64,000 nt of DNA from an uncultured Acidobacteriota bacterium (GCA_963822445.1 CAWGHO010000002.1:128001-192000); one strand, 5' to 3'. Shown: positions 6,161 to 60,280, counted from the first letter of the stretch. Numbers and translations: made by a program. Notes: generated by a model not told the origin, from the letters alone.

Positions 6161-7366
6161 ATGTCGCTGCTGCCGACGCTCGAGGTGATCGTTCACACTC
6201 TACGCCATGCATTCGCCGATCGCGCGCGGCGGGCCTGGCGCGCGGCCGTTCATCGCGACAAGAAGTTACGCATCGGCGTCGACATCCGCCCGTTCTACGA
6301 GCCGCTGACCGGCGTTGGCTGGTATCTCTACTACCTCCTGCACGAGCTGGCGAAGCGCGATGACGTCGACCTGTATCTCTTCGGCGATGCGCGTGTGACC
6401 GATCTCGGCCCGAAGCTGCATGCGGACCTGCCGAAGAACGCGCGCTACTGCACGTTCGATCTGCGCGGGTTGCCGGTGTCGGGCCTCGCGCGACCGTTGA
6501 CCGCCGCGGCGTACGTCGGATGGATGGCGCTGACGGACTGCGACGTCTTCTTCGGCGCGAACTATTTCCTGCCGCGGCTGCACGGCGCGATCGCGAAGCG
6601 GCGGGTGATCACCATCCACGATCTGACCTACAAACGCTTTCCGGAGCTGCTGCAGAAGGAGACGCTGGAGAGTCTCGAGCGTCACGTGTCCCGCGAGATC
6701 GCCATCGCCGACGCGATCATCTGCGTGTCGGAATCGACGCGACGCGATCTGCTGCGGTTTTACCAGGTCGATCCCGCACGCGCCGTCGCCATTCACTCGG
6801 GTCTCGGCACGCCGGCGACCGCGGAGCCTGTCGAAGGTCTGCCCGCGCGCTACATCCTCTTCGTCAGCACCATCGAGCCCCGCAAGGACCTCGGCACCCT
6901 CATCGACGCCTTCGAGCGCCTGCGCGATTACCCGGGGTCGCTGGTGATCGTGGGCAAGGTGGGGTGGAAGTCGGAGCATTTGATTCCTCGCCTGCGCGGA
7001 CCGCGAATCGTGCACCTCGACTATTTGCCAGCGTCTGAGCTGGCGACGGTGTACCGGAGCGCCGAGGTGTTTGTGTTCCCGTCGCTGTACGAGGGTTTCG
7101 GATTCCCGCTGCTCGAAGCAATGGTGAGTGGAGTGCCGACGATTGCGGCGCGGTCTTCGTCCTTGCCGGAGATTGGCGGCGATGCGGCGCTGTACTTCGA
7201 GCCCGGCGATGCCGGGGAACTGGAAGAGCAGCTGCGCCGCCTTCTCGGCGACGAGGTCCTGCGCAATGAGCTCATCGACCGCGGGCGGCGGCGGGCGGCG
7301 GCGTTCCGGTGGGAGGAGGCGGCAAAGAGGACGCTCGAAGTTTTTCGTCGCGTCGCGAACACGTAG
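6161..7366 (+). CDS. Glycosyltransferase family 4 (RfaB/WbpY-like)
   Basis: TIHD, EPRK and EGFGFPLLEAM motifs. Confidence 0.93.
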   Translation: MSLLPTLEVIVHTLRHAFADRARRAWRAAVHRDKKLRIGVDIRPFYEPLTGVGWYLYYLLHELAKRDDVDLYLFGDARVTDLGPKLHADLPKNARYCTFDLRGLPVSGLARPLTAAAYVGWMALTDCDVFFGANYFLPRLHGAIAKRRVITIHDLTYKRFPELLQKETLESLERHVSREIAIADAIICVSESTRRDLLRFYQVDPARAVAIHSGLGTPATAEPVEGLPARYILFVSTIEPRKDLGTLIDAFERLRDYPGSLVIVGKVGWKSEHLIPRLRGPRIVHLDYLPASELATVYRSAEVFVFPSLYEGFGFPLLEAMVSGVPTIAARSSSLPEIGGDAALYFEPGDAGELEEQLRRLLGDEVLRNELIDRGRRRAAAFRWEEAAKRTLEVFRRVANT

Positions 7367-7449
7367 TCTCAAAGTCGCAAAGTCTCAAAGTCGTAAAGAG
7401 GTGATGGCGTCTACACTTTGAGACTTTGAGACTTTGAGACTTTGCGACT
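7365..7449. repeat. Tandem-unit inverted repeat, 8-nt unit AGTCTCAA
   Basis: Left arm agtctcaa agtcgcaa agtctcaa agtcgtaa, 17-nt spacer, right arm ctttgaga x3 ctttgcga; overlaps the upstream stop and the downstream TTG start. Confidence 0.92.
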
Positions 7450-8437
7450 CTTAATCGACGGCCGCCCCCTCGTCGGAAATCGCACCGGCATCGGCGTGCA
7501 CACCGCGGAGATCGCGGGGCGGCTGCACGAGTCGCCGCTGATCGCCTCGCACGCCGTCATCGAGAACCGGCAGGGGCTGGAGAACGCCGCGTTTCGCGTC
7601 GATCACTCGCCGTTCGGATTGCTCTGGCAGCAGACCATCCTTCCGGAGATCAAATGCGAGGTCCTGTGGGGTCCGCACGGAACGCTGCCTTTCACCTGGA
7701 AGAGGCCCTCCGTGGTCACGGTCCACGACTTCACCTCCATCACCATGCCCGGACGGCACCGGCTGAAGACGATCCTGTCGTTCAACCTCTTCATCGGGCG
7801 GAGCCTGGAAATCGCAACGCGCGTGGCCTGCGTATCACGTGGCGTGGCGGATGAGGCGATACGGGGCTTCGGTGTTCCCGCGGACAGGATCGAGATCGTG
7901 CCGAACGGCGTCGATGGGTTTTTCTCGCCTGGCGGTGAGGAAGGTGACTACATCCTCTTCACCGGCACGATCGAGCCGCGGAAGGGGATCGACGATCTGT
8001 TTGCGGTCTGGTGGTCGCTGCCGGAGCCACGGCCGCGGCTCGTTCTGGCCGGCGATGCCGGCTGGAAAACAAGAGTGCCGGACGGCGCGGAAGTCCTGGG
8101 CTACGTCACCCGCGAGCGTTTGCGCGACCTGTATCGCGGCGCGCGCGTCTTCGTTTACCCCTCGCGCTACGAAGGATTCGGCATCCCGCCGCTCGAGGCC
8201 ATGGCCTGCGGCGCGCCGGTGATCGCCACGCGCACCGGGGCGATTCCCGAATTCGCCGGCGATGCGGCGGTGCTCATCGAGCCCGGCGATCTCGACGCGC
8301 TCCGCTCGTCGCTGATCCGGCTCCTCGGCGACGCGAATCTGCGCCGCGACCTTCGCGCGCGCGGTCCCGAGCGCGCGAAGCTGTACGACTGGAACCGCAG
8401 CGCAACGCTGATGACGGAGCTGCTGCGATGCGGATAG
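7442..8437 (+). CDS. Glycosyltransferase family 4
   Basis: RTGIG, TVHD, EPRKG and EGFGIPPLEAMACG motifs. Confidence 0.93.
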   Translation: MRLLIDGRPLVGNRTGIGVHTAEIAGRLHESPLIASHAVIENRQGLENAAFRVDHSPFGLLWQQTILPEIKCEVLWGPHGTLPFTWKRPSVVTVHDFTSITMPGRHRLKTILSFNLFIGRSLEIATRVACVSRGVADEAIRGFGVPADRIEIVPNGVDGFFSPGGEEGDYILFTGTIEPRKGIDDLFAVWWSLPEPRPRLVLAGDAGWKTRVPDGAEVLGYVTRERLRDLYRGARVFVYPSRYEGFGIPPLEAMACGAPVIATRTGAIPEFAGDAAVLIEPGDLDALRSSLIRLLGDANLRRDLRARGPERAKLYDWNRSATLMTELLRCG

Positions 8438-9459
8438 GCATCGACGCGCGGAAGATCGCCGACTTCGGAATCGGCACCTACATCCGCGGTCTGCTGCGGG
8501 AGATGCCCGGCGAGTACGTCGCCTTCGCGCCGAAGGATGCGCCGGTTCCGGCGGGCCTCGAGCACATCGCCGTCGATGCGCCTCACTACTCGATTCGCGA
8601 GCTCCTCGCGGTCGGACGCGCCGCCGATCGCGCGGGCCTCGACCTCTTTCACGCGCCGCACTACGTCGTCCCGTTCACGAAAGTGCCGATCGCGGTCACC
8701 ATCCACGACCTCATTCATCTCCATCAGCCGATGCGGAATCCGCTCGCGCCGCTTTACGCGCGGACGATGATCCGGCGGGCCATCCGCAACGCGCGGGTGG
8801 TGCTGACCGTGTCCGAGGCGGTGAAACGGGAGCTGGAGTCGGAGCTTGGGGCGAAGCGGGTGGTGGTCACTCCGAACGGGATCGACGAAGCGTTTTCCCC
8901 GAAAAAGGCAGCAAAAACGCACTTCCTATATGTCGGTAACGATAAGCCACACAAGAATGTGGACGCTCTGGTTGACGCATTTGTACGCGTTCGAACCGAA
9001 GTCGCCGATGCCACGCTGATCCTGGCCGGTGCCCCGTTCAACCGCTTTCGCGGCCGCGACGGCGTGATCGCTCGCGGGTTCGTGAACGACGAAGACCTGG
9101 TGAACCTTTACCGCGGCGCCATCGCGCTGGTGATGCCGAGCCACGAAGAAGGGTTCGGATTGCCGGCGGCGGAGGCGATGGCCTGCGGTGCGGCGGTGAT
9201 CACTTCGCTCGCGCCGGCGTTGGTGGAGATCACCGGCGAGGCCGCCCTGCACGTCGATGCGCGATCGATCGTTGCGCTGGCGACGGCGATGACGCGCGTC
9301 GCGCGCGATGCTTCGTTGCGCGATCGACTCGCCGCGCGCGGCGTCGAGCGCGCGCGATTCTTCACCTGGAAACGCTGCGCGGAGATCACGCGAAGCGCCT
9401 TCGAAGAGGTCCTTCAGCGTGGAACATCGTGGAACAAGGAGTCCGAATTACGATTTTGA
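8428..9459 (+). CDS. Glycosyltransferase family 4
   Basis: Start MRIGIDARK at ATG 8428; GIGTY, TIHD, KPHKN and EGFGLPAAEAMACG motifs. Confidence 0.92.
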   Translation: MRIGIDARKIADFGIGTYIRGLLREMPGEYVAFAPKDAPVPAGLEHIAVDAPHYSIRELLAVGRAADRAGLDLFHAPHYVVPFTKVPIAVTIHDLIHLHQPMRNPLAPLYARTMIRRAIRNARVVLTVSEAVKRELESELGAKRVVVTPNGIDEAFSPKKAAKTHFLYVGNDKPHKNVDALVDAFVRVRTEVADATLILAGAPFNRFRGRDGVIARGFVNDEDLVNLYRGAIALVMPSHEEGFGLPAAEAMACGAAVITSLAPALVEITGEAALHVDARSIVALATAMTRVARDASLRDRLAARGVERARFFTWKRCAEITRSAFEEVLQRGTSWNKESELRF

Positions 9460-9471
9460 TAAACAAATCGC

Positions 9472-9500
9472 TTGACAATATCGATTAACGAATCTATTTT
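9472..9500 (+). promoter_or_regulatory. Sigma70-type promoter
   Basis: TTGACA (9472-9477), 17-nt spacer, TATTTT (9495-9500) in an AT-rich patch. Confidence 0.65.
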
Positions 9501-9803: not shown

Positions 9804-9835
9804 GTAGGGCCGGCGCAAGCCGGCCCTACTATTTT
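9804..9835 (+). terminator. Intrinsic terminator
   Basis: GTAGGGCCGGC-GCAA-GCCGGCCCTAC stem (11 bp, GNRA loop) followed by TATTTT. Confidence 0.7.
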
Positions 9836-13657: not shown

Positions 13658-13683
13658 CCTCGGGTGCTATGATTCTGGCACGA

Positions 13684-14199
13684 ATGGCACAGACGACGTT
13701 AATCAACCGCGAACAGATCGATGCACGGGTCGCCGAAATGGCAAAGGAAATCGAGGCTGAATTCGCCGGTTCCGAGCTGATCGCTCTCTGTGTCCTGAAA
13801 GGGGCGATGTTCTTCTGCGCCGACCTCGTCCGGCAGATGAAGATGGACGTGGCCATCGACTTCATCCAGATCTCCAGCTACGGCAATCAGAAGTATTCGT
13901 CGGGGGTCGTGACCATCCTCAAGGAGCCGCAGCTCGACATGCGCGGCAAGTCCGTGCTGATCGTCGAGGACATCATCGACAGCGGCCTCTCCATCCGCGA
14001 GGTGAGCAACTTCATCGAGAGCCGCGGCGCGGCGAAGGTGAAGACAGCGGCGTTCCTCGACAAGCCAAAAGCGCGCAAAGTGCCGTTCACTCCCGACTTC
14101 GTGGGCTTCCCGATCGAGCCGCAATTCGTGATCGGGTACGGGCTCGATTTCGCGGAGAAGTATCGGAATATCCCTGAAGTGCAGGTGCTGTCGGATTAG
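13684..14199 (+). CDS. hpt: Hypoxanthine phosphoribosyltransferase
   Basis: VLKGA, SSYG, PRPP loop VLIVEDIIDSG and FVIGYGLD motifs. Confidence 0.96.
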   Translation: MAQTTLINREQIDARVAEMAKEIEAEFAGSELIALCVLKGAMFFCADLVRQMKMDVAIDFIQISSYGNQKYSSGVVTILKEPQLDMRGKSVLIVEDIIDSGLSIREVSNFIESRGAAKVKTAAFLDKPKARKVPFTPDFVGFPIEPQFVIGYGLDFAEKYRNIPEVQVLSD

Positions 14200-14310
14200 T
14201 TAGTTTATCCCGCGCGCAGACGCGGGATCTCTCGGTGCACCTGCGAAACCGCTCGTCATGATCCCCTCAGTGCACGGAGAGATCCCGCGTCTGCGCGCGG
14301 GATAAACTAA
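14200..14310. repeat. Long inverted repeat (REP family 4 doublet)
   Basis: Perfect 34-bp arms TTAGTTTATCCCGCGCGCAGACGCGGGATCTCTC and its reverse complement; each arm is itself palindromic (ATCCCGCG..CGCGGGAT). Confidence 0.9.
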
Positions 14311-17945: not shown

Positions 17946-18037
17946 GAATGCAGAATGCAGAATGCAAAATGCAGAAAAGAATCGACGGTCCGTGCTCAGA
18001 CACTTTCTGCATTCTGCATTTTGCATTCTGCATTTCG
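17946..18037. repeat. Tandem-unit inverted repeat, 7-nt unit GAATGCA
   Basis: gaatgca x3 aaatgca gaaa, spacer of about 26 nt, then tttctgc attctgc attttgc attctgc; between rnj and uppP. Confidence 0.92.
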
Positions 18038-18044: not shown

Positions 18045-19721
18045 TCACATCTCCCAGATCACCGGCAGAATCATCGGCCTGCGCCCCATGCTCTTCCGGA
18101 AGTAGCGTTTGAGCAGGGCGCGCAGGCGGTCTTGCAGCAGGTCGGCGTCGCGGAGCTCGTCGGGCTGACTTTCGTCAAACATGCCAACGAGCTGGTTGCG
18201 CACCTCCACCAGCATTTCCTGACTGGCGTCGACGTGCACCAGACCCCTGGTGATGATCTCTGGATCGCGGATCAGGCGGCCGTTGCTGTCCACGGCGACG
18301 ACGACGATCACGAAACCGTCTTCGGCGAGATGCTGACGGTCCCGCACGACCACATCCGGCACTTCCTCCGCCTCGGAATCGATGAAGACCTTCCCCTGCG
18401 TGACGCGCTCTTCGAGCACGCGAACCCCGTTGCCGTCGATCTCCGCGACCTGCCCGTTGGTGATCACCACGCCGTGCGGTACGCCCACTTCCTCGGCAAG
18501 TCGCGCGTGATGGATGAGATGCCGCAGGGTGCCGTGCATGGGGATGAAGAACTTCGGCCGGGTGACGTTGAGCATCAGCTTCAGCTCTTCCTGGCAGGCG
18601 TGGCCGGAGACGTGGATGTCGGGCTGCTCGTGATGCACGACCTCGGCGCCGCGGCGGTAAAGGTTGTCGATGACGTGCGAGACCGCGCGCTCGTTGCCGG
18701 GAATCGTGCGCGCGGAGATGACGACCACGTCGCCGCTCTCGATCGAGACCTGTTTGTGCTCGCCGATGGCCATCCGCGACAGCGCCGAGGACGGCTCGCC
18801 CTGCGTGCCGGTCGTGAGAATGACCATGTCGCGCGGCGAGAAGTCGGTCGAGCTCGCGCGCGTCTCCCGCGGGAACTTCAGATAGCCGAGGCGCTCCGCG
18901 GTCTCTACGTTGTCGACGAGCGAGCGGCCGATGAGCAGCACCTTGCGGCGGTGCTTGCGCGCGAGGTCGATGATCTGCTGCACGCGATGGATGTGCGAGG
19001 CGAAGGTGGTGACGATGATCCGGCCGCGGGCGTTGCTGAACACGCGATCGAGCGCGCTCCCGACGGTTTTCTCGGAAGGTCCGTGGCCGGGGATCAGCGC
19101 GTTGGTTGAATCGCTGACGAGGAGGAGCACGCCGCGCTCGCCGTAGTCGGCGAATCGGGCGAGGTCGGTGGGCTTCGCATCGATGGGCGTGTGATCGATC
19201 TTGAAGTCGCCGGTGTGGATGATCGTGCCGGCGGGCGTGGTGATCGCGTAGCCGAGGGCGTCGACGATGGAGTGCGTGACGCGGATTGCTTCGATGCGAA
19301 ACGACCCGACTTCCACCGAGTCCCGCGGCATGATCGCCCGCAGCTCGATGTCGTCGATCCCGAACTCCTCGAGCTTGTCCGCGACGAACCCGAGCGCGAG
19401 TGGCATGCCGTAGACGGGAATGGCGTGGCGCTCGACGAGAAACGGCACCGCGCCGATGTGATCTTCATGGCCGTGCGTGAGGAAGAGAGCCTTGATCTTC
19501 GAGGCGTTGTCGAAGATGTAGGTCATGTCCGGAATGATCACGTCCACGCCGAGCGTGGCCGCGTCGGGAAACATCATTCCGCAGTCGACGAGGACGGCCG
19601 TATCGCCATGCTCGTAGACCATGAGGTTCATGCCGATCTCGCCGAGACCGCCGAGGGGGATGACGCGGAGGGACGGCGGGTTGCTGGGTTGCTCGGTTGC
19701 TGGGTTACTGGATTCGCTCAT
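18045..19721 (-). CDS. rnj: Ribonuclease J
   Basis: PLGGLGEIGMN, THGHEDHIG, HTGDFK, HVSGHA and C-terminal RRPMILPVI motifs. Confidence 0.96.
   Translation of the reverse strand: MSESSNPATEQPSNPPSLRVIPLGGLGEIGMNLMVYEHGDTAVLVDCGMMFPDAATLGVDVIIPDMTYIFDNASKIKALFLTHGHEDHIGAVPFLVERHAIPVYGMPLALGFVADKLEEFGIDDIELRAIMPRDSVEVGSFRIEAIRVTHSIVDALGYAITTPAGTIIHTGDFKIDHTPIDAKPTDLARFADYGERGVLLLVSDSTNALIPGHGPSEKTVGSALDRVFSNARGRIIVTTFASHIHRVQQIIDLARKHRRKVLLIGRSLVDNVETAERLGYLKFPRETRASSTDFSPRDMVILTTGTQGEPSSALSRMAIGEHKQVSIESGDVVVISARTIPGNERAVSHVIDNLYRRGAEVVHHEQPDIHVSGHACQEELKLMLNVTRPKFFIPMHGTLRHLIHHARLAEEVGVPHGVVITNGQVAEIDGNGVRVLEERVTQGKVFIDSEAEEVPDVVVRDRQHLAEDGFVIVVVAVDSNGRLIRDPEIITRGLVHVDASQEMLVEVRNQLVGMFDESQPDELRDADLLQDRLRALLKRYFRKSMGRRPMILPVIWEM
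19678..19711. repeat. Single tandem-octamer arm inside the rnj 5' end
   Basis: ggttgctg ggttgctc ggttgctg ggttactg; encodes SNPATEQPSNP. Confidence 0.8.
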
Positions 19722-21020: not shown

Positions 21021-21039
21021 AAGGGCGCGGATTATAAGG

Positions 21040-21087
21040 TGGAGCGCCGGCGTCCCCGCCGGCTGGTCCGCCGGCATCCCGCCGGCC
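21040..21087 (+). repeat. REP family 1, copy 1
   Basis: TGGAGCGCCGGCGTCCCCGCCGGCTGGTCCGCCGGCATCCCGCCGGCC, two tandem GC palindromes. Confidence 0.88.
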
Positions 21088-21151
21088 TCCGAGGTACCAT
21101 TCGCGCGAACCGTCGCCGGACCCGGGTCCCCCTCCCGCGCCACAGATACCC

Positions 21152-21730
21152 GTGCGACACGACAACTTCATTCCAGATTCGCGACTTACAGCCATCCACT
21201 CGCGAGGCTACATGCCCCACTGGCAGGTCGACCACGCCATCTACTTCGTTACTTTCCGGCTCGCTGACTCATTACCGACTCACGTCGTGATGGAGCTGAA
21301 ACGAGAACGAGAACACATGCTTCGATCCGCGTCGACAGCCGTCGAACGGGCGCGGGTTGACGCCGCTTTTGCGATCCGGCTCGATCACGAACTGGACGCA
21401 AATCACGGCAGTTGCCTCTTACGTGAGCATGCGGAGACCATCGCGGGAGCGCTGCAACATTTCGACGGCGCTCGTTACGAGCTTCACGCCTGGTGCGTGA
21501 TGCCGAATCACGTTCATGTGATGGTTCAGCCGAACGAAGGGGTCGCGCTCGCGAAGATCATCCACTCATGGAAGTCGTATACGGCGCATGTCATCGGGGA
21601 GGGGTCGATCTGGCAGAGGGAGTATTTCGATCGCGTGGTGCGGACGCCGTCGGAGTACACGGCCACGAAGGCGTACATCGAGGCGAATCCTGCGAAGGCG
21701 GGGTTGAAAGGATGGAAGTGGGTTAGCTAA
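21152..21730 (+). mobile_element. REP-associated tyrosine transposase (RAYT; IS200/IS605-type Y1 HUH)
   Basis: YFVTFRL, HUH motif MPNHVH, WQREYFDRVVR and catalytic YIEANP; flanked by inverted REP copies. Confidence 0.9.
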
Positions 21731-21731
21731 A

Positions 21732-21777
21732 GGCCGGCGAGACGCCAGCGCAACAGCCGGCGGGCCGCCGGCGCTCC
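21732..21777 (-). repeat. REP family 1, copy 2 (inverted, diverged)
   Basis: Reverse complement reads GGAGCGCCGGCGGCCCGCCGGCTGTTGCGCTGGCGTCTCGCCGGCC. Confidence 0.8.
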
Positions 21778-21786
21778 GGATGACAG

Positions 21787-21834
21787 TGGAGCGCCGGCGT
21801 CCTCGCCGGCTGGTCCGCCGGCGTCCCGCCGGCC
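21787..21834 (+). repeat. REP family 1, copy 3
   Basis: TGGAGCGCCGGCGTCCTCGCCGGCTGGTCCGCCGGCGTCCCGCCGGCC. Confidence 0.88.
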
Positions 21835-21845
21835 GAGAGAGGCGC

Positions 21846-30087: not shown

Positions 30088-31110
30088 GTGAGTTCGCCAA
30101 ACGTCAACGCCACAATCGACTTAGCCGACATTCGCTCTGCCGGCGCCCGCATCGGGCCCTACGTCCACCGCACCCCGCTCCTGGCCAGCCGTTCCCTGTC
30201 CGAGCGCCTCGGCGTGGAAGTGCGCCTCAAGTGCGAGAACCTCCAGCGCGCGGGCTCGTTCAAGATCCGTGGGGCGATGAACGCGCTGCTGCAGGTCGAT
30301 GAGGCCCACCGTTCTCGCGGGGTGGTGGCCTTCTCCTCCGGCAATCACGCTCAGGGTGTGGCCCTGGCGGCGCGGCTCCTGGGCATGACCGCGACGATCG
30401 TCATGCCCGAGAACTCCGTGCGGACAAAGGTCGACGCTACAAAGGCTTACGGCGCGACGGTCGTCCAGGGCGGCGTCACCGCGGCGACGCGGGACACGGT
30501 CGCGCGCGAGATCGCCGAGAAGACCGGCGCGACCGTGATCCCCCCGTTCGACGACGAGCGGATCATCGCCGGCGCGGGCACGGTCGGGCTGGAGATCGTC
30601 GAGGAGTGGCCGGAGGTCAGCACGATCGTCGTCCCGCTGGGCGGCGGCGGGTTGTTGTCCGGGGTGGCGCTGGCGGCCGCCGGTGTGGTGCAGGCCTCCG
30701 GCCTGCCTTTGGGCGGGGGACACGAGAGGCAGGCCGGAGGCCTGCACCACACCCGGATCGATGTCTACGGCGTCGAGCCGGCCGCCGGCAACGACGGCGA
30801 GCAATCCTTCAAAACCGGCAAAATCGTCAACATCGATCCTCCCAACACCATCGCCGACGGCGCCCGGACCCTGGCCATCGGCACCCGGAACTTCGCCGTG
30901 ATCCGGGAGCACGTCCGGGACGTGGTCAGCGTCGACGACGACGTCCTCCTCGAAACCGTGAAGTGGACGATGTACCGCACCAAGATGGTCATCGAGCCGA
31001 CCGGTGCGCTGGGTGTCGCGGCGCTGATCGACGGAAAGATCAAGCCGCGAGGCCCCGTGGCGATCGTGATCAGCGGCGGGAACCTCGACTTCTCGCTCCT
31101 CTGCCGATGA
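30088..31110 (+). CDS. PLP-dependent threonine/serine dehydratase (serine racemase-like)
   Basis: KCENLQRAGSFKIRGA, SSGNHAQG, PLGGGGL, EPTGA and ISGGN motifs; carries a 24-aa palindrome-derived insert. Confidence 0.93.
   Translation: MSSPNVNATIDLADIRSAGARIGPYVHRTPLLASRSLSERLGVEVRLKCENLQRAGSFKIRGAMNALLQVDEAHRSRGVVAFSSGNHAQGVALAARLLGMTATIVMPENSVRTKVDATKAYGATVVQGGVTAATRDTVAREIAEKTGATVIPPFDDERIIAGAGTVGLEIVEEWPEVSTIVVPLGGGGLLSGVALAAAGVVQASGLPLGGGHERQAGGLHHTRIDVYGVEPAAGNDGEQSFKTGKIVNIDPPNTIADGARTLAIGTRNFAVIREHVRDVVSVDDDVLLETVKWTMYRTKMVIEPTGALGVAALIDGKIKPRGPVAIVISGGNLDFSLLCR
30682..30753. repeat. REP family 3 doublet inserted in frame in the dehydratase gene
   Basis: Perfect 27-bp inverted arms GGTGTGGTGCAGGCCTCCGGCCTGCCT; 72 bp total, starting on a codon boundary. 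Confidence 0.88.
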
Positions 31111-36347: not shown

Positions 36348-37490
<1,143 letters not shown>

Positions 37491-37491
37491 T

Positions 37492-37568
37492 GGTTACGAG
37501 GTTGCGGGGTTACGAGGTTACGGGGGAGTTCTTCACCTCGTAACCCCGCAACCTCGTAACCTCGCAAC
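37492..37568. repeat. Tandem-unit inverted repeat, 8-nt unit GGTTACGA
   Basis: ggttacga ggttgcgg ggttacga ggttacgg, 10-nt spacer, then cctcgtaa ccccgcaa cctcgtaa cctcgcaa; begins 1 nt after the mreB stop. Confidence 0.92.
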
Positions 37569-37613
37569 GACACACCACGTGGCCCAAAACCTGCTCAGGT
37601 CCACCCTCGAAAC

Positions 37614-38474: not shown

Positions 38475-38977
38475 GATGGCTCCGGTTCGCCATCGGCCTG
38501 CTCCTCGCCCTCACCCTGCACTCGCTCCTCGACAGCTTCTATCCGAACGCTCTGGCGTTCTTCAATCCGTACATCATCCTGGTCGCCTACTACTCGATGG
38601 GCGGGAACATCGTCGGCGCGATCTTCGCCGGCATCGCCGCCGGATTCGTTCAGGACGCTTTCTCGAACGCGATGTTCGGCCTGCACGCCTTCGCGCTCAC
38701 GGTTTGCGCGTACGTGATCGCATACATCAACGCCCGGCTCTCGCTCCGCGGCGTCCTGGCCTTCGGCGCCTGCCTCGGCGGCGCGGTCATCGTCAACGAG
38801 CTCGTCATCTACGTCCTGGTGAACATTCTTGTGAAACAGAAGATCGAGATGTTCGAACAGGCGCTTCTCGTGAAAGTGATCTTCACCCTGTTGTTCGGGA
38901 TGTTCGTGTATCAGTTGTTGACACTGTTCTTACGTGAAGAGCCGATCGAAGCGACTCGACGGCAGGCTACGTGGTGA
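38471..38977 (+). CDS. mreD: Rod shape-determining protein MreD
   Basis: Polytopic membrane protein with GFVQD...FGLHA; follows mreC. Confidence 0.9.
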   Translation: MRWLRFAIGLLLALTLHSLLDSFYPNALAFFNPYIILVAYYSMGGNIVGAIFAGIAAGFVQDAFSNAMFGLHAFALTVCAYVIAYINARLSLRGVLAFGACLGGAVIVNELVIYVLVNILVKQKIEMFEQALLVKVIFTLLFGMFVYQLLTLFLREEPIEATRRQATW

Positions 38978-38980
38978 TTG

Positions 38981-39068
38981 GTTGCTGAGTTGCTAGGTTG
39001 CTGAGTTGCTGGGTCCCACCGCCCGGCTCGACACCCAGCAACTCAGCAACTCAGCAACCCAGGAACCC
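38981..39068. repeat. Tandem-unit inverted repeat, 8-nt unit GTTGCTGA
   Basis: gttgctga gttgctag gttgctga gttgctgg, 18-nt spacer, then acccagca actcagca actcagca acccagga; fills the mreD-mrdA gap. Confidence 0.92.
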
Positions 39069-39073: not shown

Positions 39074-41033
39074 ATGCGCGTATATCGCGACGACCAAAAG
39101 TTCCTCCAATTCCGCATCAACGCCGTGCTCTGGGGCATCGTGGCGGCGTTCGTCTTTCTGGCCGGCTCGTTCTGGTTCGTGCAGGGCGTGCAGGCGGAGA
39201 AGTACCGCGGGCTCTCCGAGGCCAATGCCCTGCGGGAGATCGAGGTGCCGGCGAAACGCGGGCTGATCATGGACCGCTACGGCAAGATCGTCGCGGACAA
39301 CCAGGCCGCGTACGAGCTGCAGATCGACCGCGTCGTGATGAAGCCGCTGCTCAAGGCGGATCCGAAGCATCGCGACAAGCTCATCACCTTCATCTCGACG
39401 GTCCTCGGCGTCACCGAGCCCGAGCTCCGCGCCCGCTACGACAAAGAAGCGTCTGAAGTCCCGACCACCCGGCCCTTCCCGCTCGCCGAAGACCTGACCA
39501 TGTCCCAGGTCGCGACGCTGAAGGCGCAGTCGATCGCCTTCCCCGAGATCAACGTCATCCCCGTCCAGCGCCGCAACTACCCCTACCAGACCATGGCCGC
39601 GCACGTCCTCGGATTCATCGGGGAGGTCGGCGACAAAGAGCTTTCGCAGAACGAGGCCTTCGAACAGGGCGACCTGATCGGCAAGCGCGGCGTCGAGCTG
39701 ATGTACGACTCCTACCTCCGCGGCCAGGACGGCGCCGAGTACTGGGAGTACGACGCGGACGGCCGCCGGCTCAGCGAATACGCGCCAGCCCGCAAGATTC
39801 CCGTTCCGGGCGACAACATCTATCTCACCCTCGACTTCGAGCTGCAGCGCCGCGCCGAGCAGTACTTCGCGGAGAACGAGATGGTCGGCGCGGCCGTGGT
39901 CCTCGATCCCGCGCAACGGCGAGGTCCTGGCGATGGTCTCCTCCCCCGCCTACAACCCCAACGTCTACTCGAAGCGGTTCGCGCCCGACGTCTGGAAGAC
40001 GATCATCGAGCAACCCCTTCAAGATCGAGCTGAATCGCGCCATCCAGGGCATGTACTCGCCCGGCTCGGTCTTCAAAGTGGTCATGGCCATCGCCGGACT
40101 TTCGGACGGCGTGGTCGACCCGCACACGACGTTCAACTGCGGCGGCAGCGGCGTGTTCCGCGGACGGCGCTTCCGCTGCTGGAAGAAGGAAGGCCACGGC
40201 GCGGTCGACGTCCGAGCGCGCGATGAAGGTCTCCTGCGACATCTACTTCTACAACGTCGGTGACCGCCTCGGCGTCGACAAGATCAACAAGTACGCGCAC
40301 CAGCTGACCTTCGGCGAGATCTCGCACATCGATCTCGACGGCGAGCAAGCGGGCCTGGTCCCCTCGATCGAGTGGCGCCGCAAGAATCCCGTCCGAACCT
40401 CGCGCGGCGCTGATCCGAAGTGGTATCCGGCCGAGACCATCTCCGTGGCCATCGGCCAGGGCCCGCTCATCGTGACGCCGCTGCAGGTCGCGAACATGAC
40501 CGCGGCCGTCGCCAACGGCGGCAAGGTCTTCCAGCCGCACGTCGTCCGCTACGTCGACCGCGTGCAGCCCGACGGCTCGTACAAGCGGTTCCGCGTTCCG
40601 AGCCGCGTGCTCCACGAGATCAAGCTTTCACCCGGCGCGCTCAAATCAGTGCGCGACGGTCTGTGGAAGGTGGTCAATGAGCAGGGCGGCACCGGCGGCA
40701 ACGCGCGCATCGAAGGGCTCGACATCTCCGGCAAGACCGGAACGGTGCAGGTCATCCGGCAGGTCGGCTGGGTCAAGTCGGAGCACCTGCCGTTCAAGTA
40801 CCGCGACCACGCCTGGTTCGCCTCGTTCGCACCGCTGAACAATCCGCAGATGGTCGTGGTCGTGTTCGTCGAGCACGGCGGCCACGGCGGATCGGACGCG
40901 GCGCCCCTGGCGAAGCTGCTTTACGAATCGCAGATTCCGCGACAAAGTCACCGGCGCCCGCCTCGATCTGAGCAATCCCGAGACGCTCGAGCAGATCAAG
41001 GAAGGGGAGCTGCCGCTCCCGACCACACGATGA
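39074..41033 (+). CDS. mrdA: Penicillin-binding protein 2 (about 4 frameshifts, probably sequence errors)
   Basis: Consecutive frames give RGLIMDR, GEVLAMVSSP, PGSVFK (SxxK), SCD, IGQG and GKTGT; shifts near 39910, 40008, 40212 and 40930. Confidence 0.9.
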
Positions 41034-42135
41034 TCTTCCGCGACCGGCGCATGCCGTCCGTCGACCTCAATTTTCTCGGCACCGCCGTGGTGCTGGCGAT
41101 CATCGGCTGTGTGCTGATCTACAGCGCCACGTACTACAGCGAGCCTTCGCTGAGCACGGTCAAGCGGCAGATGATCTGGGTGTGCATCGGCATCGCTCTG
41201 ATGATCGCCTTCATGGTCATCGACTACCACGTGCTGTTCGACATCGCCCCGATCCTGTACGGCATCGGCATCCTGCTACTGATCTACCTGCTGATCTGGG
41301 GACAGGTCACGGCGAACGTGAAGTCGTGGATCCGCTTCGGAGGCTTTCAGTTCCAGCCCGCCGAGTTCATGAAGGTGTTCACGGCGCTGATGGTGGCGCG
41401 CTACTTCGACTCGAACGATCGCGCGTACCTGAACTTCCGCACGTTCATGATCGCCATGGGCATCATCGCCCTGCCGGTCGGCCTGATCATCGTGCAGCCC
41501 GACTTCGGGACCGCGGCGTCGTTCTTCCCGCTCGTGGCCGTGGCGATGTTCTTCGGCGGCATCCGCGCGCAGGTCTGGACGGCGATGGTCCTGGCAGTGC
41601 TGATCGCGTCTGCCGGCCACCTACTTCTTCTTCCTCAAGCCCTATCAGCGTGAGCGCATCGCCATCTTTCTCAATCCGGAGCGCGATCCGCTCGGCTCGG
41701 GCTATCAGGTGACGCAGGCCAAGATCGCCATCGGCTCGGGCGGGATTCACGGCAAGGGATTCACGCACGGGACGCAGGGCAAGTTCGGCTTCGTCCCCGA
41801 GCATCACACCGACTTCATCTTCGCCGTCCTCGGCGAGGAATGGGGCTTCATCGGCGTGGTGATCGTGCTCGGGCTCTACCTCTACTTCGTCATACCAGGC
41901 TCTGACCTTCGCCAAACACGCACGTGACCGGGGAGGCACGTTCCTGATCATCTGCCTGGTCATGTTCTTCGTGTTTCACATCCTCATCAACGTGTCGATG
42001 CAGATCGGCATCCTGCCGACGACCGGCATTCCGCTGCCGCTGATCTCGTACGGCGGCTCGTCGACGATGATGTTCTTCATGGCCATCGGGTTGATCGCGA
42101 ACGTGGACATGCGGCGTTTCGTCAACGCGCCGTAA
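41030..42135 (+). CDS. rodA: Rod shape-determining protein RodA (2 frameshifts, probably sequence errors)
   Basis: QPAEFMK, QPDFGT, PEHHTDFIF..LGEEWG and GIPLPLISYGGSS motifs; shifts near 41610 and 41895. Confidence 0.92.
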
Positions 42136-55295: not shown

Positions 55296-56390
55296 TCAGC
55301 CTGATTGTTGTGAAAAATTCAGCAGCAAGCCCACCGCGATGAGACTCGCCACGAGCGACGAGCCTCCGTAACTGACGAGCGGCAGCGGCAGGCCTTTCGT
55401 CGGAAGAAGACAAAGCACGACGCTGACGTTGATCAGCGCCTGCACGGCGATCATCAGCGTGCAGCCGAGCGCCGCGTAAAACGCGAATCGATCGCGGCTG
55501 TAACGCGCGATCCGGAAGCCGCGCCACGCCAGCAGCGCAAACGCGCCGACCAGCGCAACCGCGCCGGCGAACCCGAGCTCTTCACCGATGATCGAAAAAA
55601 TGAAGTCGGTGTGCGGCTCAGGAAGGAAGAAGAGCTTCTGCCTGCCGTTGCCGATCCCCAGCCCGCTGAAGCCGCCGGTGCCCAATGCGATGAGCGACTG
55701 CATCGCCTGGAACCCTTTCCCAAGCGGATCCGCCTCGGGATTGAGAAACGACAGCAGCCTGCCGCGCCGATACGCGGCGCTGATCGCAAAGTACGACGCG
55801 ACAGGAAAGAGCGCGATCGCGAAGATGGCCAGATAGCGCCAGGCGACGCCGGCCGCGAAAATCATCCCCGTGGCGACGAGAATCAGGGTCGTGGCCGTTC
55901 CGAAATCGCGGCCAAGGAGAATCAGTCCGGCGTACAACGTGAGAATGCAGCCGAGCGGCAGCAGGGTCGTGGTCAGATCGTTGATGCGCTCCTCGCGACG
56001 CGACAGGAAATACGCGAGGAACACGACCATGGCCGGCTTGGCGAACTCGGACGGCTGCAGCTGGAACCAGGGCAACTGCACCCAGCGGTGCGTGCCGTTG
56101 ATCGGCGACTGAAACAGGGCGATGACCAGCCCCAGCGCCACCGCCGCCATCGCGCCGTACACCAGCCGCTTGTGGCGGAGCAGCGACGGATCGAGGTGCA
56201 TCAGCACGACCATGACCGTCGCGCCGGCGAAGAGCCAGATGCACTGCCGCATCATGAAGTGATACGGCGCGGTCTCGAAGCGCTGCGTGGCCATGATCGC
56301 CGACGCGCTGTAGATCATGACCAGACCGATGACCACGATCAGCATGGCCGTGCCGAAGAGCCAGGTGTCGTAGGAGAGTTTGCGGCTCAT
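55296..56390 (-). CDS. ftsW: Peptidoglycan polymerase FtsW
   Basis: QPSEFAK, PEPHTDFIFSIIGEELG and LPLVSYGGSS motifs; start ATG 56390. Confidence 0.96.
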   Translation of the reverse strand: MSRKLSYDTWLFGTAMLIVVIGLVMIYSASAIMATQRFETAPYHFMMRQCIWLFAGATVMVVLMHLDPSLLRHKRLVYGAMAAVALGLVIALFQSPINGTHRWVQLPWFQLQPSEFAKPAMVVFLAYFLSRREERINDLTTTLLPLGCILTLYAGLILLGRDFGTATTLILVATGMIFAAGVAWRYLAIFAIALFPVASYFAISAAYRRGRLLSFLNPEADPLGKGFQAMQSLIALGTGGFSGLGIGNGRQKLFFLPEPHTDFIFSIIGEELGFAGAVALVGAFALLAWRGFRIARYSRDRFAFYAALGCTLMIAVQALINVSVVLCLLPTKGLPLPLVSYGGSSLVASLIAVGLLLNFSQQSG

Positions 56391-57701
56391 AGCGCCCTCA
56401 CCAGCTCTTCGAAGTGCTCGCCGCGATGCTCGAAGTTTCTGTACTGGTCGAAGCTCGCGCAGGCCGGGGACAGCAGCACGGTCTCGCCGTTCTTCGCGTT
56501 CTCCCGCGCCCACTTCACCGCGCCGTCCATGTCTTTCGCGGCCACGATCTCGGTCGCTCCATCGAGCGCTTCGCCGATGCGATCCGCGGCTTTGCCGATG
56601 GTGAGTACGGCGCGCGCTTTCGACTGCACGAGGTCGCGCATCCGCTCGAATTCGCCGGCCTTGTCCTTGCCGCCTAGAATCAGGATCACGCTCGACTCGT
56701 CGAAGCCTTCCAGCGACTTGAGCGTCGCGTCGACGTTCGTGCCTTTGGAGTCGTTGATCCAGCGGACGCCATCGAGCTCGCGGACGAGAACCATCCGATG
56801 CGGCAGACCGGCGAATGTGCCGAAGGCGATCTGCACGTCCACGTCATCGACACCTACCGCCCGAGCCGCGAGCCAGGCCGCGAGCGCGTTTTCGACGTTC
56901 GCGTTGCCTTGCAGCTTCAGCGAGGACCGCGGGATGCGCCGTTCGTCGCCGCCGAGGCTCATCACCATTTCGTCGCCGTCGAGCCACGCGCCCTCTTCGA
57001 CCTTCTGCGTTGCCGAGAAACGAAGGACACGCGCAGTGGTCTCGCGCGGCGCCGCGCGGCGCTCCACGCCGTTCACGATGGCCGTGTCGCTCGAGACTTG
57101 ATTGCGGAAGATCCGGTACTTCGCTCGCCGCGTAATCGTCGAGCGAGCCGTAGCGATCCATGTGATCGGGGGTGATGTTCAGCAGCAAGGCGACGTTCGC
57201 GTGGAAGGTGTCGACCGATTCGAGTTGAAACGACGAAAGCTCGAGGACGTACGTCCGCGGCTTGTCGAAGTCGACCGCGGAGATCAGCGGCTCGCCGATG
57301 TTGCCGGCCACGATGGGCTGGCGTCCGGCCACTTTGAGAATCTCGCCGATCAGCGCGGTCGTCGTCGACTTGCCGTTCGAGCCGGTGATGGCGATGACGG
57401 TGCCGGTCAGCTGCGTGTAGGCGAGCTCGATCTCCCCGAGCACGGGAATGCCTTTCAGCGCCGCGCCGACGATCAGCGGATTGGTGCGCGGCACGCCGGG
57501 GCTGAGCACGAGCGTGGTCACGCCTTCAAGCAACTCGTTGTCCTCGCGGCCGAAAGCCTTTTCCACGCGCGGATCGAGCTCGTACGGCAGCGACGGATTC
57601 GCGCTGGAGTCCACGAGCACGACGGAGTCCTCGCGCGACGCGAGAAAGTTCGCCGAGGCTACGCCGGACTTGCCGGCACCGAGGACCAGGGCGCGGCTCA
57701 T
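56387..57701 (-). CDS. murD: MurD ligase (1 frameshift near 57120)
   Basis: TGSNGKSTT, ELSSFQL and DHMDRY, then NDSKGTN and SPACASFDQY in a second frame. Confidence 0.93.
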
Positions 57702-58795
57702 CGCAATTTCAGCGTCGCCAGCGCGACCATCGCGAACATGATCGCGATGATCCAGAAGCGCACGACGACCTTGGTCTCCTTCCACCCCGACAGCTCGAAG
57801 TGGTGATGCAGCGGCGACATCTTGAAAATGCGCCGGCCGGTGATCTTGAACGAGGCCACCTGCAGAATGACCGACAGGGCCTCGAGCACGAACAGCCCGC
57901 CGACGAGGACGAGCAGGATCTCCTGCTTGATCATCACGGCCAGGCAGCCGATCGCGCCGCCGAGGGCAAGCGATCCGACGTCACCCATGAAAATCTCTGC
58001 CGGATGGGCGTTGAACCAGAGGAACCCCAGCGACGCGCCGACCATCGCTCCGCAGAACACGGCCAGCTCACCGGTTTGCGGCACCCAGGCGATGCGCAGA
58101 TATTCGGCGATTTTCGCGTGACCCGCGGCGTACGTCAGAACCGTGTAGGTGACCGCGGCGACGAGAGTGGTGCCGATGGCCAGACCGTCCAGGCCATCAG
58201 TCAGATTCACCGCGTTCGACGCGCCGACGAGGATGATCATCACGAAGGCGATGTAGACCACGCCGATGTCGAGCGCGAACGTTTCCGTCTTCAGAAACGG
58301 CAACGTGATGACGGTGTAGTAGTTGTTCTTGAGCGTCGGCAGATAAGCGATGGCCAGCGCCACCAGCAGCGCGACGGCGAACTGCGCGCCGAATTTTTCC
58401 TTCGCGGTGAGGCCGAGGTTCCGCTTCTTGACGAGCTTGCGGTAGTCGTCGACGAAGCCGATCGCGCCGTACGCGAACGTCACGAAGAGCACGATCCAGA
58501 TGTACGGATTCTTGATGTCCGCCCAGAGAATCGTCGGGACGAGGATGGCGATGTTGATGAGGATGCCGCCCATCGTCGGCGTGCCGGCCTTGACCTGGTG
58601 CGACTTCGGACCTTCCTCGCGGATGAACTGGCCTGCTTTGATGCGGCGCATCCGTTCGATCAGCCAGGGGCCGAGGATGAACGAGATCATCAGGGCCGTC
58701 AGCGCCGCGAACGCCGTGCGGAAGGTGATGTAGCGGAAGACGTTGAAGCCGACGAACTCGTCCCGGAGGTATTTGTAGAGGAGGTGGTAAAGCAC
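57698..58795 (-). CDS. mraY: Phospho-MurNAc-pentapeptide transferase
   Basis: KAGTPTMGG, NLTDGLDGL, FMGDVGS and PLHHHFE motifs. Confidence 0.97.
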   Translation of the reverse strand: MLYHLLYKYLRDEFVGFNVFRYITFRTAFAALTALMISFILGPWLIERMRRIKAGQFIREEGPKSHQVKAGTPTMGGILINIAILVPTILWADIKNPYIWIVLFVTFAYGAIGFVDDYRKLVKKRNLGLTAKEKFGAQFAVALLVALAIAYLPTLKNNYYTVITLPFLKTETFALDIGVVYIAFVMIILVGASNAVNLTDGLDGLAIGTTLVAAVTYTVLTYAAGHAKIAEYLRIAWVPQTGELAVFCGAMVGASLGFLWFNAHPAEIFMGDVGSLALGGAIGCLAVMIKQEILLVLVGGLFVLEALSVILQVASFKITGRRIFKMSPLHHHFELSGWKETKVVVRFWIIAIMFAMVALATLKLR

Positions 58796-60164
58796 TCAGT
58801 CCTCCCTCTGCAGCACGGCGATGGCGCGATCGAGCCCCACCCCGCGCGAGCCTTTGATCAGCACCAGGTCTCCCGGCCGCACGAATGCCCGCAGGAACGC
58901 TCCCGCCGACTCAGCATCCGTGAAATGCCGCAAATGCGCTTCTTCGAATCCCGTTTCCCGCGCGCCTTGCAGTAACGCCTGCGCGCGTGTGCCGACGCCT
59001 ACGACGACGTCGATCGACCCGGGGATGGCCGCACCGGCGTCGCGATGGAACTGCATCTCCGCCTCCCCCAACTCGAGCATGTCCCCGATCACGGCGATGC
59101 GCCGTCCGGCGACGTCGGCCTGGGTCATGAGCTCGAGCGCGCGGCCGAGCGCGTAGGGATTGGAGTTGTAGGTGTCGTCGTAAATCGTCGCGCCGCGCCA
59201 GTCGAGGATCACGCCGCGGTGATAGGCAGGCTTCACGTCGCGCACGCCGCGCTCGATGCCTTCCCAGGAGATGCCTACCGTTCGCGCGGTGGCGATCGCC
59301 GCGAGGAGATTTTCCAGGTTGTGCCGTCCCGGCAGCACGAGCTCGAATTCCCGCTCGTTCGCTTCTGCAATCAGTGTGAAGTGCGTGCCGAGCAGGCCGC
59401 GCTCGCGGATGTTCGATGGCCCGGTACTGCGCGGTCGCGTCGTCGATGCCGTACGTCACGATCGTCCCTTCGAATCCCGCGCTGATCCGGACGACGTGCT
59501 CGTTGTCGTTGTTGATCACGATCGAGCCGCCGGGGGCCACGTTTTCGAGCAGCTCGCGCTTGGCCGCGGCGATTCCTTCGATCGTGCCGAAGAACTCGAT
59601 GTGGACCGGGGCGATGTTCGTGTAGACGCCGATGTGCGGTCGCATCAGGCCCGCGATCTCGGCGATCTCCCCGGCATGGTTCATCCCCATCTCGCTGACC
59701 ACGACCTCCGCGTCATCGGGCATGTTGTCGAGGCAGAGCGGCGCGCCGATCTGGTTGTTGAAGTTGCCCCAGGATTTGTGCACGCGCCGCTCGGTGGAGA
59801 TCAGCGCGGCGATCATTTCCTTGGTCGTGGTCTTGCCGGCCGAGCCGGTGATGCCGACCAACGTCACGTCGTAGCGATCGCGGATCGCTTTCGCGAGTTG
59901 TTGCAGCGCTTTGTTGGGGTCGTCGACCTGGACGATCGCTTTGCCGGTCTGCGGAACGTCTCTGACGACTGCGCCGCGCGCGGTCTCCAGCGCCTGCGGA
60001 AGGAACTGATGTCCGTCGAGGCGCTCGCCTTTGATGGCGAAGAAGACCGAGTCGGGCTTGACCTCGCGGGAGTCGATGACGACGGAGGAGGATTCGACTT
60101 CGCCGCCTTGGATGACGCGGCCGCCGATCATGGCGGCCAGCTGGGAGAAGGTCAGCCGAGGCAT
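58796..60164 (-). CDS. murF: MurF ligase (1 frameshift near 59412)
   Basis: DGHQF, TGSAGKTTTK and EMGMNHAGEI, then DDTYNSNP, GDMLELG and KGSRG in a second frame. Confidence 0.93.
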
Positions 60165-60180
60165 GGGCGTTCCCCGCTGG

Positions 60181-60280
60181 CCGAATGCAAAATGCAGAAT
60201 GCAGAATGCAGAAAGAGTGAATCAGAGTGCGAATGCGAATGCCTTTTTTCTGCATTCTGCATTCTGCATTCTGCATTCGG
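60181..60280. repeat. Tandem-unit inverted repeat, 7-nt unit GAATGCA
   Basis: gaatgca aaatgca gaatgca gaatgca gaaa, spacer, then tttctgc attctgc x3 attcgg; same unit as 17946-18037. Confidence 0.92.

Follow-up and report, generated by a model that had tools for sequence, protein, structure and literature searches.

What keeps a hairpin in its place between two genes when its sequence is replaced, and what does such a hairpin do there? The question is raised by a stretch of 64,000 nt from an uncultured Acidobacteriota bacterium (GCA_963822445.1 CAWGHO010000002.1:128001-192000), hereafter the window, in which five intergenic elements are built of about four tandem copies of a short unit, a spacer and about four inverted copies of the same unit. 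We call these elements tandem-unit hairpins (Table 1). A preliminary description, made from the sequence of the window, had located the five elements and their units, placed all of them between co-directional genes, noted that none is followed by a U-tail and proposed that the architecture is conserved and the units interchangeable. All of this was borne out by an inverted-repeat scan, Tandem Repeats Finder (TRF), Pfam, a terminator scan and the comparison with related loci. Its remark that the elements often lie within a few nucleotides of stop or start codons needs a correction for hairpin 5, which lies 16 nt before the murF start and 170 nt past the murE stop.

TRF assigned each of the ten arms a period of 7 or 8 and between 3.9 and 5.0 copies. 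Not one of 200 dinucleotide-shuffled versions folded as stably as the respective hairpin, and while nine hairpins with a score of at least 18 were found in the window, the five tandem-built ones included, thirty first-order Markov surrogates of the window together yielded none. The flanking genes, assigned by Pfam, form co-directional pairs throughout. A T-run is missing after all five hairpins, the terminator scan flagged none of them and no Rfam 15 family matched the window at or above its gathering score on either strand. The five hairpins are thus real and non-random. Their exact copy numbers should be treated with caution, since several genes of the window (PBP2, rodA, murD, murF, murE and ftsI) are split over two to three frames when compared with the intact orthologues of a related locus (L001), which looks more like indel errors from long-read assembly than like a biological feature. 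Gene fragmentation similar to that of the window was also seen in locus L049.

Table 1. Position and make-up of the tandem-unit hairpins and of other features of the window. Arms are from the inverted-repeat scan; fold is that of the sense RNA in kcal/mol, followed by its z score.
Feature	Position (strand)	Unit	Copies	Arms	Arm length, complementarity, distance	Fold; z	Location and remarks
Hairpin 1	7365..7449 (+)	AGTCTCAA/AGTCGCAA	4.2 + 4.4	7365-7398 / 7416-7449	34 nt, 88%, 17 nt	-48; -7.7	GT4-GT4 junction; 5' edge inside TAG stop (7364-7366) of upstream GT4 gene; 3' arm contains likely TTG start (7442) of next GT4 gene
Hairpin 2	17946..18037 (-)	GAATGCA	4.4 + 4.3	17947-17977 / 18004-18034	31 nt, 94%, 26 nt	-50; -7.0	RNase J-UppP (BacA) junction; RNase J stop (18045-18047) 7 nt upstream; uppP start (17926) 19 nt downstream
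Hairpin 3	37492..37568 (+)	GGTTACGA/GGTTGCGG	3.9 + 4.2	37492-37518 / 37535-37561	27 nt, 100%, 16 nt	-57.4; -10.5	mreB-mreC junction; onset 1 nt past mreB stop (37488-37490); perfect 27-bp stem corresponds to pairing shifted by one unit
Hairpin 4	38980..39068 (+)	GTTGCTGA	3.9 + 4.5	38980-39014 / 39033-39067	35 nt, 89%, 18 nt	-57.4; -7.9	mreD-PBP2 junction; mreD stop (38975-38977) 2 nt before; PBP2 start (39074) 5 nt after; final 3'-arm unit altered to CCCAGGAA, with AGGA inside
Hairpin 5	60180..60282 (-)	GAATGCA	4.4 + 5.0	60180-60214 / 60247-60281	35 nt, 97%, 32 nt	-65.7; -9.6	MurE-MurF junction; murF start (60164); murE stop (60451); further inverted repeat (60286-60410) between murE stop and hairpin
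Unpaired array	19678-19711 (-)	GGGTTGCT	4.2				Within first 15 RNase J codons (codons 5-15), translated MSESSNPATEQPSNPP...
Unpaired perfect array	61686-61718 (-)	GGCAGTG	4.7				In murE frame, translated ...SLPTAHCPLPTAF...
Non-tandem palindrome	14200-14310 (+)				41 nt, 98%		Onset 1 nt past stop of phosphoribosyltransferase gene (13669-14199)
Compound non-tandem palindrome	2807-2897 (-)						Adjoins plsX stop (2898), ahead of fabD (1836-2774)
Perfect palindrome, 72 nt	30682-30753				27 nt, 18-nt loop		Inside PALP-domain gene (30088-31110)
RAYT-like open reading frame	21152-21730						Pfam Y1_Tnp; flanked by GGAGCGCCGGCG-type clusters (21039-21088, 21787-21835)
Terminator-like hairpin	9804-9829						GTAGGGCCGGC-GCAA-GCCGGCCCTAC, then TATTTTCC; 11-bp GC stem, GTAG/CTAC ends, T-rich tail
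Motif TGGC-N8-TGCT	37580-37595 (+)						Between hairpin 3 and mreC start
Split cell-wall genes	39074-42135, 56387-57785, 58796-60164, 60451-63480						

A search with the MreC protein of the window gave 69 loci from metagenome-assembled genomes of Thermoanaerobaculia/Acidobacteriota (66-84% identity), none of the matches being identical to the window, and four loci of Myxococcaceae (31-34% identity). The 69 loci, designated here by L numbers, and the window make up the main sample of 70 Thermoanaerobaculia sequences with 1,124,164 nt. The first detector, which pairs TRF arrays with their own reverse complements, found 93 tandem-unit hairpins in this sample, the five of the window included, and none in 52,781 nt of Myxococcaceae. 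The number is a lower bound, because most of the intergenic arrays recorded as solo have a weak partner arm nearby. The second detector, which searches for the hairpin first, found 87 tandem-unit hairpins outside genes, and the union of both amounts to 114 elements. For 93 to 114 elements, the density in the sampled region is approximately 83-101 per Mb. At least one element is present in 55 of the 70 sequences, that is, in the window and in 54 of the 69 related loci. The contig names of the latter differ in style (k141_, NODE_, contig_), which we take as a sign of different assemblers, and an assembly artefact is thereby ruled out. Tandem-unit hairpins are a lineage-wide trait of Thermoanaerobaculia (Acidobacteriota).

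The period is 7 in both arms of 71 elements, 8 in 14, 9 in four and 10 in two, and two elements are mixed. The arms hold 4.3 copies in the median and 4.0-4.9 copies in 95 of 186 cases (range 2.8-22). Grouped by period (7, 8, 9 and 10), the median copy number is 4.4, 4.0, 4.3 and 4.3 (n = 142, 30, 9 and 5 arms), so that the few units of 9-10 nt likewise show about four copies. This four-unit mode is not simply a detection threshold, since the second detector, able to see stems down to approximately 2.3 units, also peaked at 4.5 units (27/87) and found only 16 elements at 3.0 units or below. The preliminary description had regarded the copy number as constant and had held this against slippage. 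The mode is real, but in addition to the wide range 16 of the 93 elements have arms that differ by more than two copies, and close relatives such as L018 and L020 or L020 and L021 have unit and loop in common and differ in copy number; slippage is therefore active. Runaway elements with 10-22 copies per arm and arms of up to 160 nt were noted in L013 (15317-15721), L001 (7082-7336) and L021 (6438-6620). An origin by doubling (from one to two to four units), prompted by a period-16 ABAB pattern in the window, was rejected as a general rule: in 119 arrays of 3.8-5.2 copies, identity at a lag of two periods was higher than at one period in 57, equal in 14 and lower in 48, with a mean of 0.86 for both. 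The 93 elements have arms of 31 nt and loops of 19 nt in the median. Arms of non-tandem hairpins in the same niche are of similar length (medians of 27.5 nt for non-tandem and 30 nt for tandem stems, second detector), and a preferred stem length would account for the copy number of about four in units of 7-8 nt. The constrained feature may thus be the stem length of approximately 30 bp.

In terms of sequence, the 93 elements hold 70 distinct units, the commonest of which occurs six times. The pattern RGTYNCNR, initially suggested for the octamers, fits six of ten octamer units in some rotation and cannot serve as a general rule. What the elements do have in common is a G-rich first arm, irrespective of the strand: G exceeds C in the 5' arm of 77 elements, C exceeds G in 10 and six are ties. 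The 5' arm is at the same time more AT-rich than the genome. The same bias is seen among strong hairpins of both kinds (61 to 7 for tandem and 46 to 16 for non-tandem ones), whereas chance-level hairpins inside genes have none (488 to 475).

As to placement, 67 of the 93 elements lie at co-directional, 13 at convergent and two at divergent junctions, one lies inside a called gene and 10 lie at contig edges or far from any called gene; the sample as a whole has 567 co-directional, 130 convergent and 134 divergent junctions. One of the two elements at divergent junctions is the runaway element of L001 mentioned above. At co-directional junctions the hairpin starts -7 to +14 nt from the upstream stop in 58 of 67 cases, often at -2 or -1 with part of the stop codon in the stem, while the distance to the downstream start is spread from -8 to 276 nt. 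Strong hairpins (score of at least 18) comprise 69 tandem and 73 non-tandem ones, which are placed alike and only three of which (3/142) are inside genes. About half of the stop-anchored stable palindromes are built from tandem units. As a side observation, the stop codons upstream of the elements (TGA 25, TAG 24, TAA 5) are enriched in TAG and depleted in TAA in comparison to all called genes (TGA 454, TAG 288, TAA 166).

Stable hairpins after stop codons bring intrinsic terminators to mind, which also lie downstream of genes and are also enriched at co-directional and convergent junctions. Terminators, however, have short GC stems, loops of 3-8 nt and a U-tract, whereas the stems here are 27-35 bp long and the loops 12-34 nt. 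TTTT was found within 10 nt past the 3' arm in none of 59 elements and five or more T in those 10 nt in one of 59 (mean 2.2 T), and due to this lack of U-tails the elements are not canonical terminators. In the scanned parts of the window the sole convincing hairpin of the canonical, terminator-like kind is the GTAG-tagged one at 9804-9829.

Alignment of orthologous junctions had been proposed as a check. Those in the loci around mreC show that a site can have this architecture with another unit, a plain palindrome or no hairpin. With occupancy defined as a hairpin of score 14 or more that starts -10 to +40 nt after the stop, the position is occupied after mreB in 37 of 64 orthologues, after the PALP-domain gene in 15 of 33, after mreD in 23 of 64 and after mreC in none of 65. 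In most species a hairpin is found at or directly past the mreB stop, its units being, for example, GGTTGNN variants, GTGCCG, AGTCCTG, AGCGAGT, GAGGCAT, GGGGAGT, GAGGAAA or the 9-mer GAATAGGAC. Non-tandem palindromes occupy the same position in L003, L008 and L010, and in L019, L028 and L031 the mreB-mreC spacer is just 37-39 nt long. At the mreD-PBP2 junction 19 sites carry a tandem hairpin and six a plain one. The empty spacers there have a median of 12.5 nt and a minimum of 1 nt, and the filled sites retain a few nucleotides on each side. The automated assignment to tandem or plain is conservative (L001, L009, L011, L030 and L059, filed as plain, are tandem by eye), so that the tandem counts are minimum values.

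Between mreB and mreC the variable insert is bounded downstream by the motif TGGC-N8-TGCT, which occurs in 60 of 68 sequences and mostly has its end 16-21 nt ahead of the mreC start; these account for 60 of the 99 matches obtained in a search of 2.25 Mb on both strands. By its spacing the motif is reminiscent of the sigma-54 -24/-12 promoter element, and it would fit a boundary between two expression units. The ATGCA-containing loops of some mreD-PBP2 elements have, by eye, a similar GG-N10-GC spacing.

The sequences of these junctions turn over in steps which can be followed between close relatives. L016 and L020, with 95% identity in MreC, have the units GAGTGCC and AGTCCTG, the latter reading GAGTCCT when rotated alike; in L018 the unit of L020 is accompanied by one intermediate GAGTGCT unit. 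In L032 one arm has decayed. In the 5' arms 212 positions deviate from the consensus of their unit; at 129 of them the change is mirrored by complementarity in the 3' arm, at 65 it is not, and 18 fall into neither group. Since variants are mirrored between the arms, either pairing is under selection or each arm serves as a template for the other. The sequences thus turn over, while position and architecture persist.

Regular arrays of short units could also be sites for a sequence-specific RNA- or DNA-binding protein that occupies one unit per subunit or repeat. The even spacing of 7-10 nt, the number of about four units and the recurrence of some units within a genome are in line with such a protein. 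It would, however, have to read four units in the five elements of the window alone and other units at orthologous junctions, and the presence of an inverted copy and of mirrored variants suggests that pairing matters here rather than the reading of a sequence. We therefore regard binding sites as highly improbable.

The recurrence of units within genomes raises the question of whether the elements are mobile. Elements at different junctions of the same genome share a unit in 10 of 55 pairs, compared to 114 of 2983 pairs between genomes (Fisher p 5e-5), although some of the sharing pairs lie only 1.4 kb apart. GAATGCA serves for two elements of the window, L047 has two GGTTGTC elements with an identical inner stem, and the unit AGTCTCAA of the GT-GT junction in the window recurs at mreD-PBP2 in L056. 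Non-autonomous mobile elements of the REPIN (paired repetitive extragenic palindromes, REP) or MITE (miniature inverted-repeat transposable element) kind, copied by a structure-recognising transposase and with the tandem units as a secondary matter, would explain such sharing at unrelated junctions. Families of non-tandem palindromes are indeed clearly dispersed over junctions and genomes: the family of the palindrome at 14200-14310 is also found at the mreD-PBP2 junction of L001 (11384-11491) and in L059 (735-747), and the GGAGGACAGGCA family at three different places in L003 (7569-7596), L008 (9901-9959) and L045 (13535-13601). Judged by their conserved sequence these families are REP-like, and they occupy the post-stop niche too. 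The 72-nt palindrome inside the PALP-domain gene appears newly inserted, being an in-frame insert of 20-24 residues that is missing in 33 of 33 orthologues of the related loci; neither the window nor the loci contain a second copy. Similar in-frame palindromic inserts are known from Rickettsia.

A candidate transposase is at hand as well. The window encodes an open reading frame (ORF) similar to REP-associated tyrosine transposases (RAYT; model NF047646 at 73 bits, below the curated cut-off of 80), which is flanked on both sides by near-identical GC-rich clusters of the GGAGCGCCGGCG type. Judged by its sequence, this region (21039-21835) is a classic RAYT-plus-REP arrangement. Its REP clusters are, however, unrelated in sequence to the tandem-unit hairpins, none of which flank the RAYT gene. 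REPs, bacterial interspersed mosaic elements (BIME) and REPINs are described as extragenic palindromes near gene 3' ends, some of which supply the stop codon, and they have been proposed to stabilise or attenuate mRNA, with inverted pairs of copies forming larger hairpins (Di Nocera et al., 2013, PMC3733652). This much they have in common with the tandem-unit hairpins. REP families, however, are conserved in sequence and tagged with GTAG or CGTC, whereas neither holds for the elements described here, which have internally repetitive arms: GTAG was found at eight of 79 5' edges, CTAC at one of 79 3' edges, CGTC once and GACG never, and with 70 units in 93 elements no conserved high-copy family is present in the 1.12 Mb sampled from 70 genomes. 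A sequence-specific transposase is hard to square with so many units. The loops differ between copies that share a unit, and no target duplication was visible by eye between filled and empty mreD-PBP2 sites, the spacers of which differ between species. On balance, transposition appears improbable as the source of the elements. A canonical terminator, a REP and an Rfam family have each been ruled out as their identity, in view of the lacking U-tails, the lacking tags and the lack of Rfam matches.

The preliminary description had gone one step further and considered the hairpins as empty sites of a repeat-flanked mobile gene. This idea finds little room in a median loop of 19 nt. Foreign material beside or inside an element was met only in two loci: in L045 the mreB-mreC spacer (6851-8820) is extended to 1968 nt and contains a GAGGAAA hairpin, two small minus-strand ORFs, a second array (CTTTCCT) and a minus-strand ORF of 404 amino acids, and in L047 (6663-7181) the left arm of a tandem hairpin is duplicated and its loop holds a long-palindrome insert of approximately 330 nt. 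Judging from these two cases, the hairpins may act as landing sites for other DNA.

Among known repeats, the inverted GGGAATC heptamer pairs of Xanthomonas come closest. According to the published account, the genome of Xanthomonas campestris has 186 GGGAATC arrays, including 70 convergent pairs. The repeats of X. campestris and X. citri are 89-93% intergenic and much nearer to the preceding ORF (28 nt) than to the following ORF (160 nt). They are mostly found between aligned ORFs (16% convergent, 7-8% divergent), in some cases overlapping the stop codon, prefer four units and vary in length and sequence at the same junction between close species (Rehm et al., 2015, PMC4692102). The same account gives their function as unknown, interprets them as quadruplex formers with one dominant G-tract unit, GGGNATC, and reports that in Xanthomonas citri transcript starts and stops are more frequent at analogous repeats than at control repeats (PMC4692102). 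All architectural features are thus shared, as far as that source describes them: 7-nt units, convergent arrays with the G-rich one first, a four-unit mode with a long tail, an intergenic position near the upstream stop and rarity between divergent ORFs. The single G-tract unit is not shared, and the elements described here, from another phylum, have periods of 8, 9 and 10 as well. Their density also exceeds that of the Xanthomonas pairs, which is approximately 14 per Mb (70 pairs, PMC4692102; genome size taken as approximately 5 Mb). A match with a repeat class already described, which the preliminary description had named as a ground for refuting its reading, is provided in part by the Xanthomonas pairs, for the architecture but not for the unit.

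It has been proposed for the heptamers of Xanthomonas and Nostoc that the four units provide four G-tracts for a G-quadruplex or another non-B DNA structure, and the G-rich 5' arm on both strands together with the four-unit mode, as described for Xanthomonas (PMC4692102), would agree with this also in Thermoanaerobaculia. However, at least four GGG runs occur in just five of the 93 5' arms, and the units of the window (GAATGCA, AGTCTCAA, GGTTACGA and GTTGCTGA) lack a G-tract. We consider a quadruplex or other non-B DNA role very unlikely, and for quadruplexes it is largely refuted here by the sequences of the units. A quadruplex is also unlikely to be the common cause in Xanthomonas and Nostoc, because the four-unit, G-first and stop-proximal pattern recurs here without G-tracts.

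Other heptamer repeats are more distant. The short tandemly repeated repetitive (STRR) heptamers of heterocystous cyanobacteria, fairly named as a loose analogue in the preliminary description, and the TAACTGA repeats of Beggiatoaceae are described as intergenic, usually present in 2-6 copies and often beside coding ends (MacGregor, 2015, PMC4679880). They are, in contrast to the tandem-unit hairpins, direct repeats with one or few units per genome, and TAACTGA is mostly found just upstream of starts (PMC4679880). Inverted pairs are the exception in the sets reported, one of 170 TAACTGA sets in the Guaymas genome (PMC4679880), and few paired repeats are given for Nostoc (PMC4692102). Heptamers were reported to be the commonest long simple repeats in most genomes, and polymerase slippage was proposed (Mrazek et al., 2007, as cited in PMC4679880). 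The tandem-unit hairpins are therefore a known but unexplained kind of repeat; new here are the many units, the absence of a dominant G-tract and the occurrence in Acidobacteriota, for which no prior description of such elements was found in the open-access literature. Looking there for earlier accounts of the lineage's elements or of the architecture yielded just two relevant papers, PMC4692102 and PMC4679880.

How, then, could these elements arise and persist? The explanation that we favour, with confidence that is about evenly balanced, is that they are palindromic microsatellites kept uniform at the DNA level and acting as 3'-end or intercistronic RNA hairpins, which probably mark or protect the ends of gene messages. 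Replication slippage would alter the copy number, while arm-to-arm copying by template switching in the palindrome, or selection for pairing, would keep the arms complementary. A substitution would spread through all units by concerted evolution, giving rise to series such as GAGTCCT, GAGTGCT and GAGTGCC, and exchange or copying between loci of one genome would carry units to other junctions. Once transcribed, the element is predicted to fold into a stem of 27-35 bp with -48 to -66 kcal/mol. The fold would loop out the insert of approximately 85 nt and thereby restore the proximity of the stop codon to the start or ribosome-binding region of the downstream gene. We propose that only self-folding inserts survive in spacers which are 1-12 nt long when empty, because folding keeps such a spacer functionally short. 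The stem could then serve as a barrier to 3' exonucleases, as a site for a double-strand RNase or as a transcription attenuator and thereby allow the two flanking genes, such as mreB and mreCD, to be uncoupled from each other. For E. coli, too, an attenuating structure has been reported between mreB and mreC. The number of approximately four units would reflect a preferred stem of about 30 bp, common to the non-tandem palindromes of the same niche. From placement and stability, both of which are observed, we infer a function for the hairpins, and a role in mRNA processing and stoichiometry, one of the options of the preliminary description, is the most plausible one; it would fit the anchoring at stops and the scarcity at divergent junctions.

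Several observations weigh against this explanation. Selection on an RNA stem could be expected to leave a trace on the sense strand, where an A-C pair stands for a G-U pair of the antisense strand. No sense-strand bias was seen in co-directional stems (G-U 35 versus A-C 40 in tandem and 36 versus 33 in non-tandem ones), and the sense and antisense folds are equally stable. This lack of strand asymmetry fits maintenance at the DNA level and leaves the function of the RNA putative. As many as 40 of 65 mreD-PBP2 sites are empty. The very long arrays, with 22 and 21 copies in L013, and the arrays inside rnj and murE look like by-products of mutation rather than adaptations. Furthermore, the gene calls come from a simple self-trained caller made for this analysis, and the counts, taken from ±10 kb around mreC, cover one 20-kb neighbourhood and are neither independent nor genome-wide.

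Such observations are what would be expected of neutral or selfish by-products of slippage and palindrome formation that persist only where they are harmless, as inserts which fold on themselves right after stops. In addition to the missing strand asymmetry and the empty sites, L016 and L020, 95% related, differ in the presence of an element, the copy in L032 is decaying and other copies have run away to 22 units. An empty mreB-mreC spacer, moreover, is nearly filled by the conserved motif, so that only the first few nucleotides after the stop are free for insertion. This alternative is tenable, but we consider it less likely. The hairpin after mreB recurs in more than half of the species under a strict threshold despite complete turnover of its sequence, and the variant positions are mirrored about twice as often as not (129 to 65). 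The G-rich-first bias, common to tandem and non-tandem hairpins, is missing from chance hairpins in genes, and the stem length is narrowly distributed. Bacterial genomes also tend to lose useless DNA.

A bolder proposal can be put forward with considerable doubt. A distinct process would write, directly downstream of stop codons, G-rich-first palindromes of approximately 30 bp from arbitrary seeds of 7-10 nt, with a turnover that outpaces the divergence of the genes. It could be intrinsic to the polymerase or coupled to the end of translation or transcription. The same process would also make the GGGAATC pairs of Xanthomonas, the four units being a rule of the process or of stem length rather than of a quadruplex, and the hairpins would be a general 3'-end signal, unconstrained in sequence and without a U-tail, in lineages where canonical terminators are scarce.

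Some repeats of the window are not part of any tandem-unit hairpin. Two unpaired arrays and the two non-tandem palindromes at 14200-14310 and 2807-2897 had been missed by the preliminary description (Table 1). The GGGTTGCT array in rnj is of the same unit type as hairpin 4 and has no partner arm within 150 nt. The GGCAGTG array lies between the N-terminal and the middle Mur ligase domains of MurE, and alignment to solved MurE structures revealed no extra length at this place.

For the Thermoanaerobaculia these elements may be of practical as well as evolutionary interest. The clade is a large and mostly uncultured soil lineage without recognisable U-tailed terminators at these sites. If the hairpins are RNA 3' ends or processing sites, they would provide a sequence-independent landmark for annotating operon structure and gene-level stoichiometry. 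They are also a natural example of concerted evolution acting on structure, in which the junction stays the same and the stem remains at approximately 30 bp while the sequence of the unit changes.

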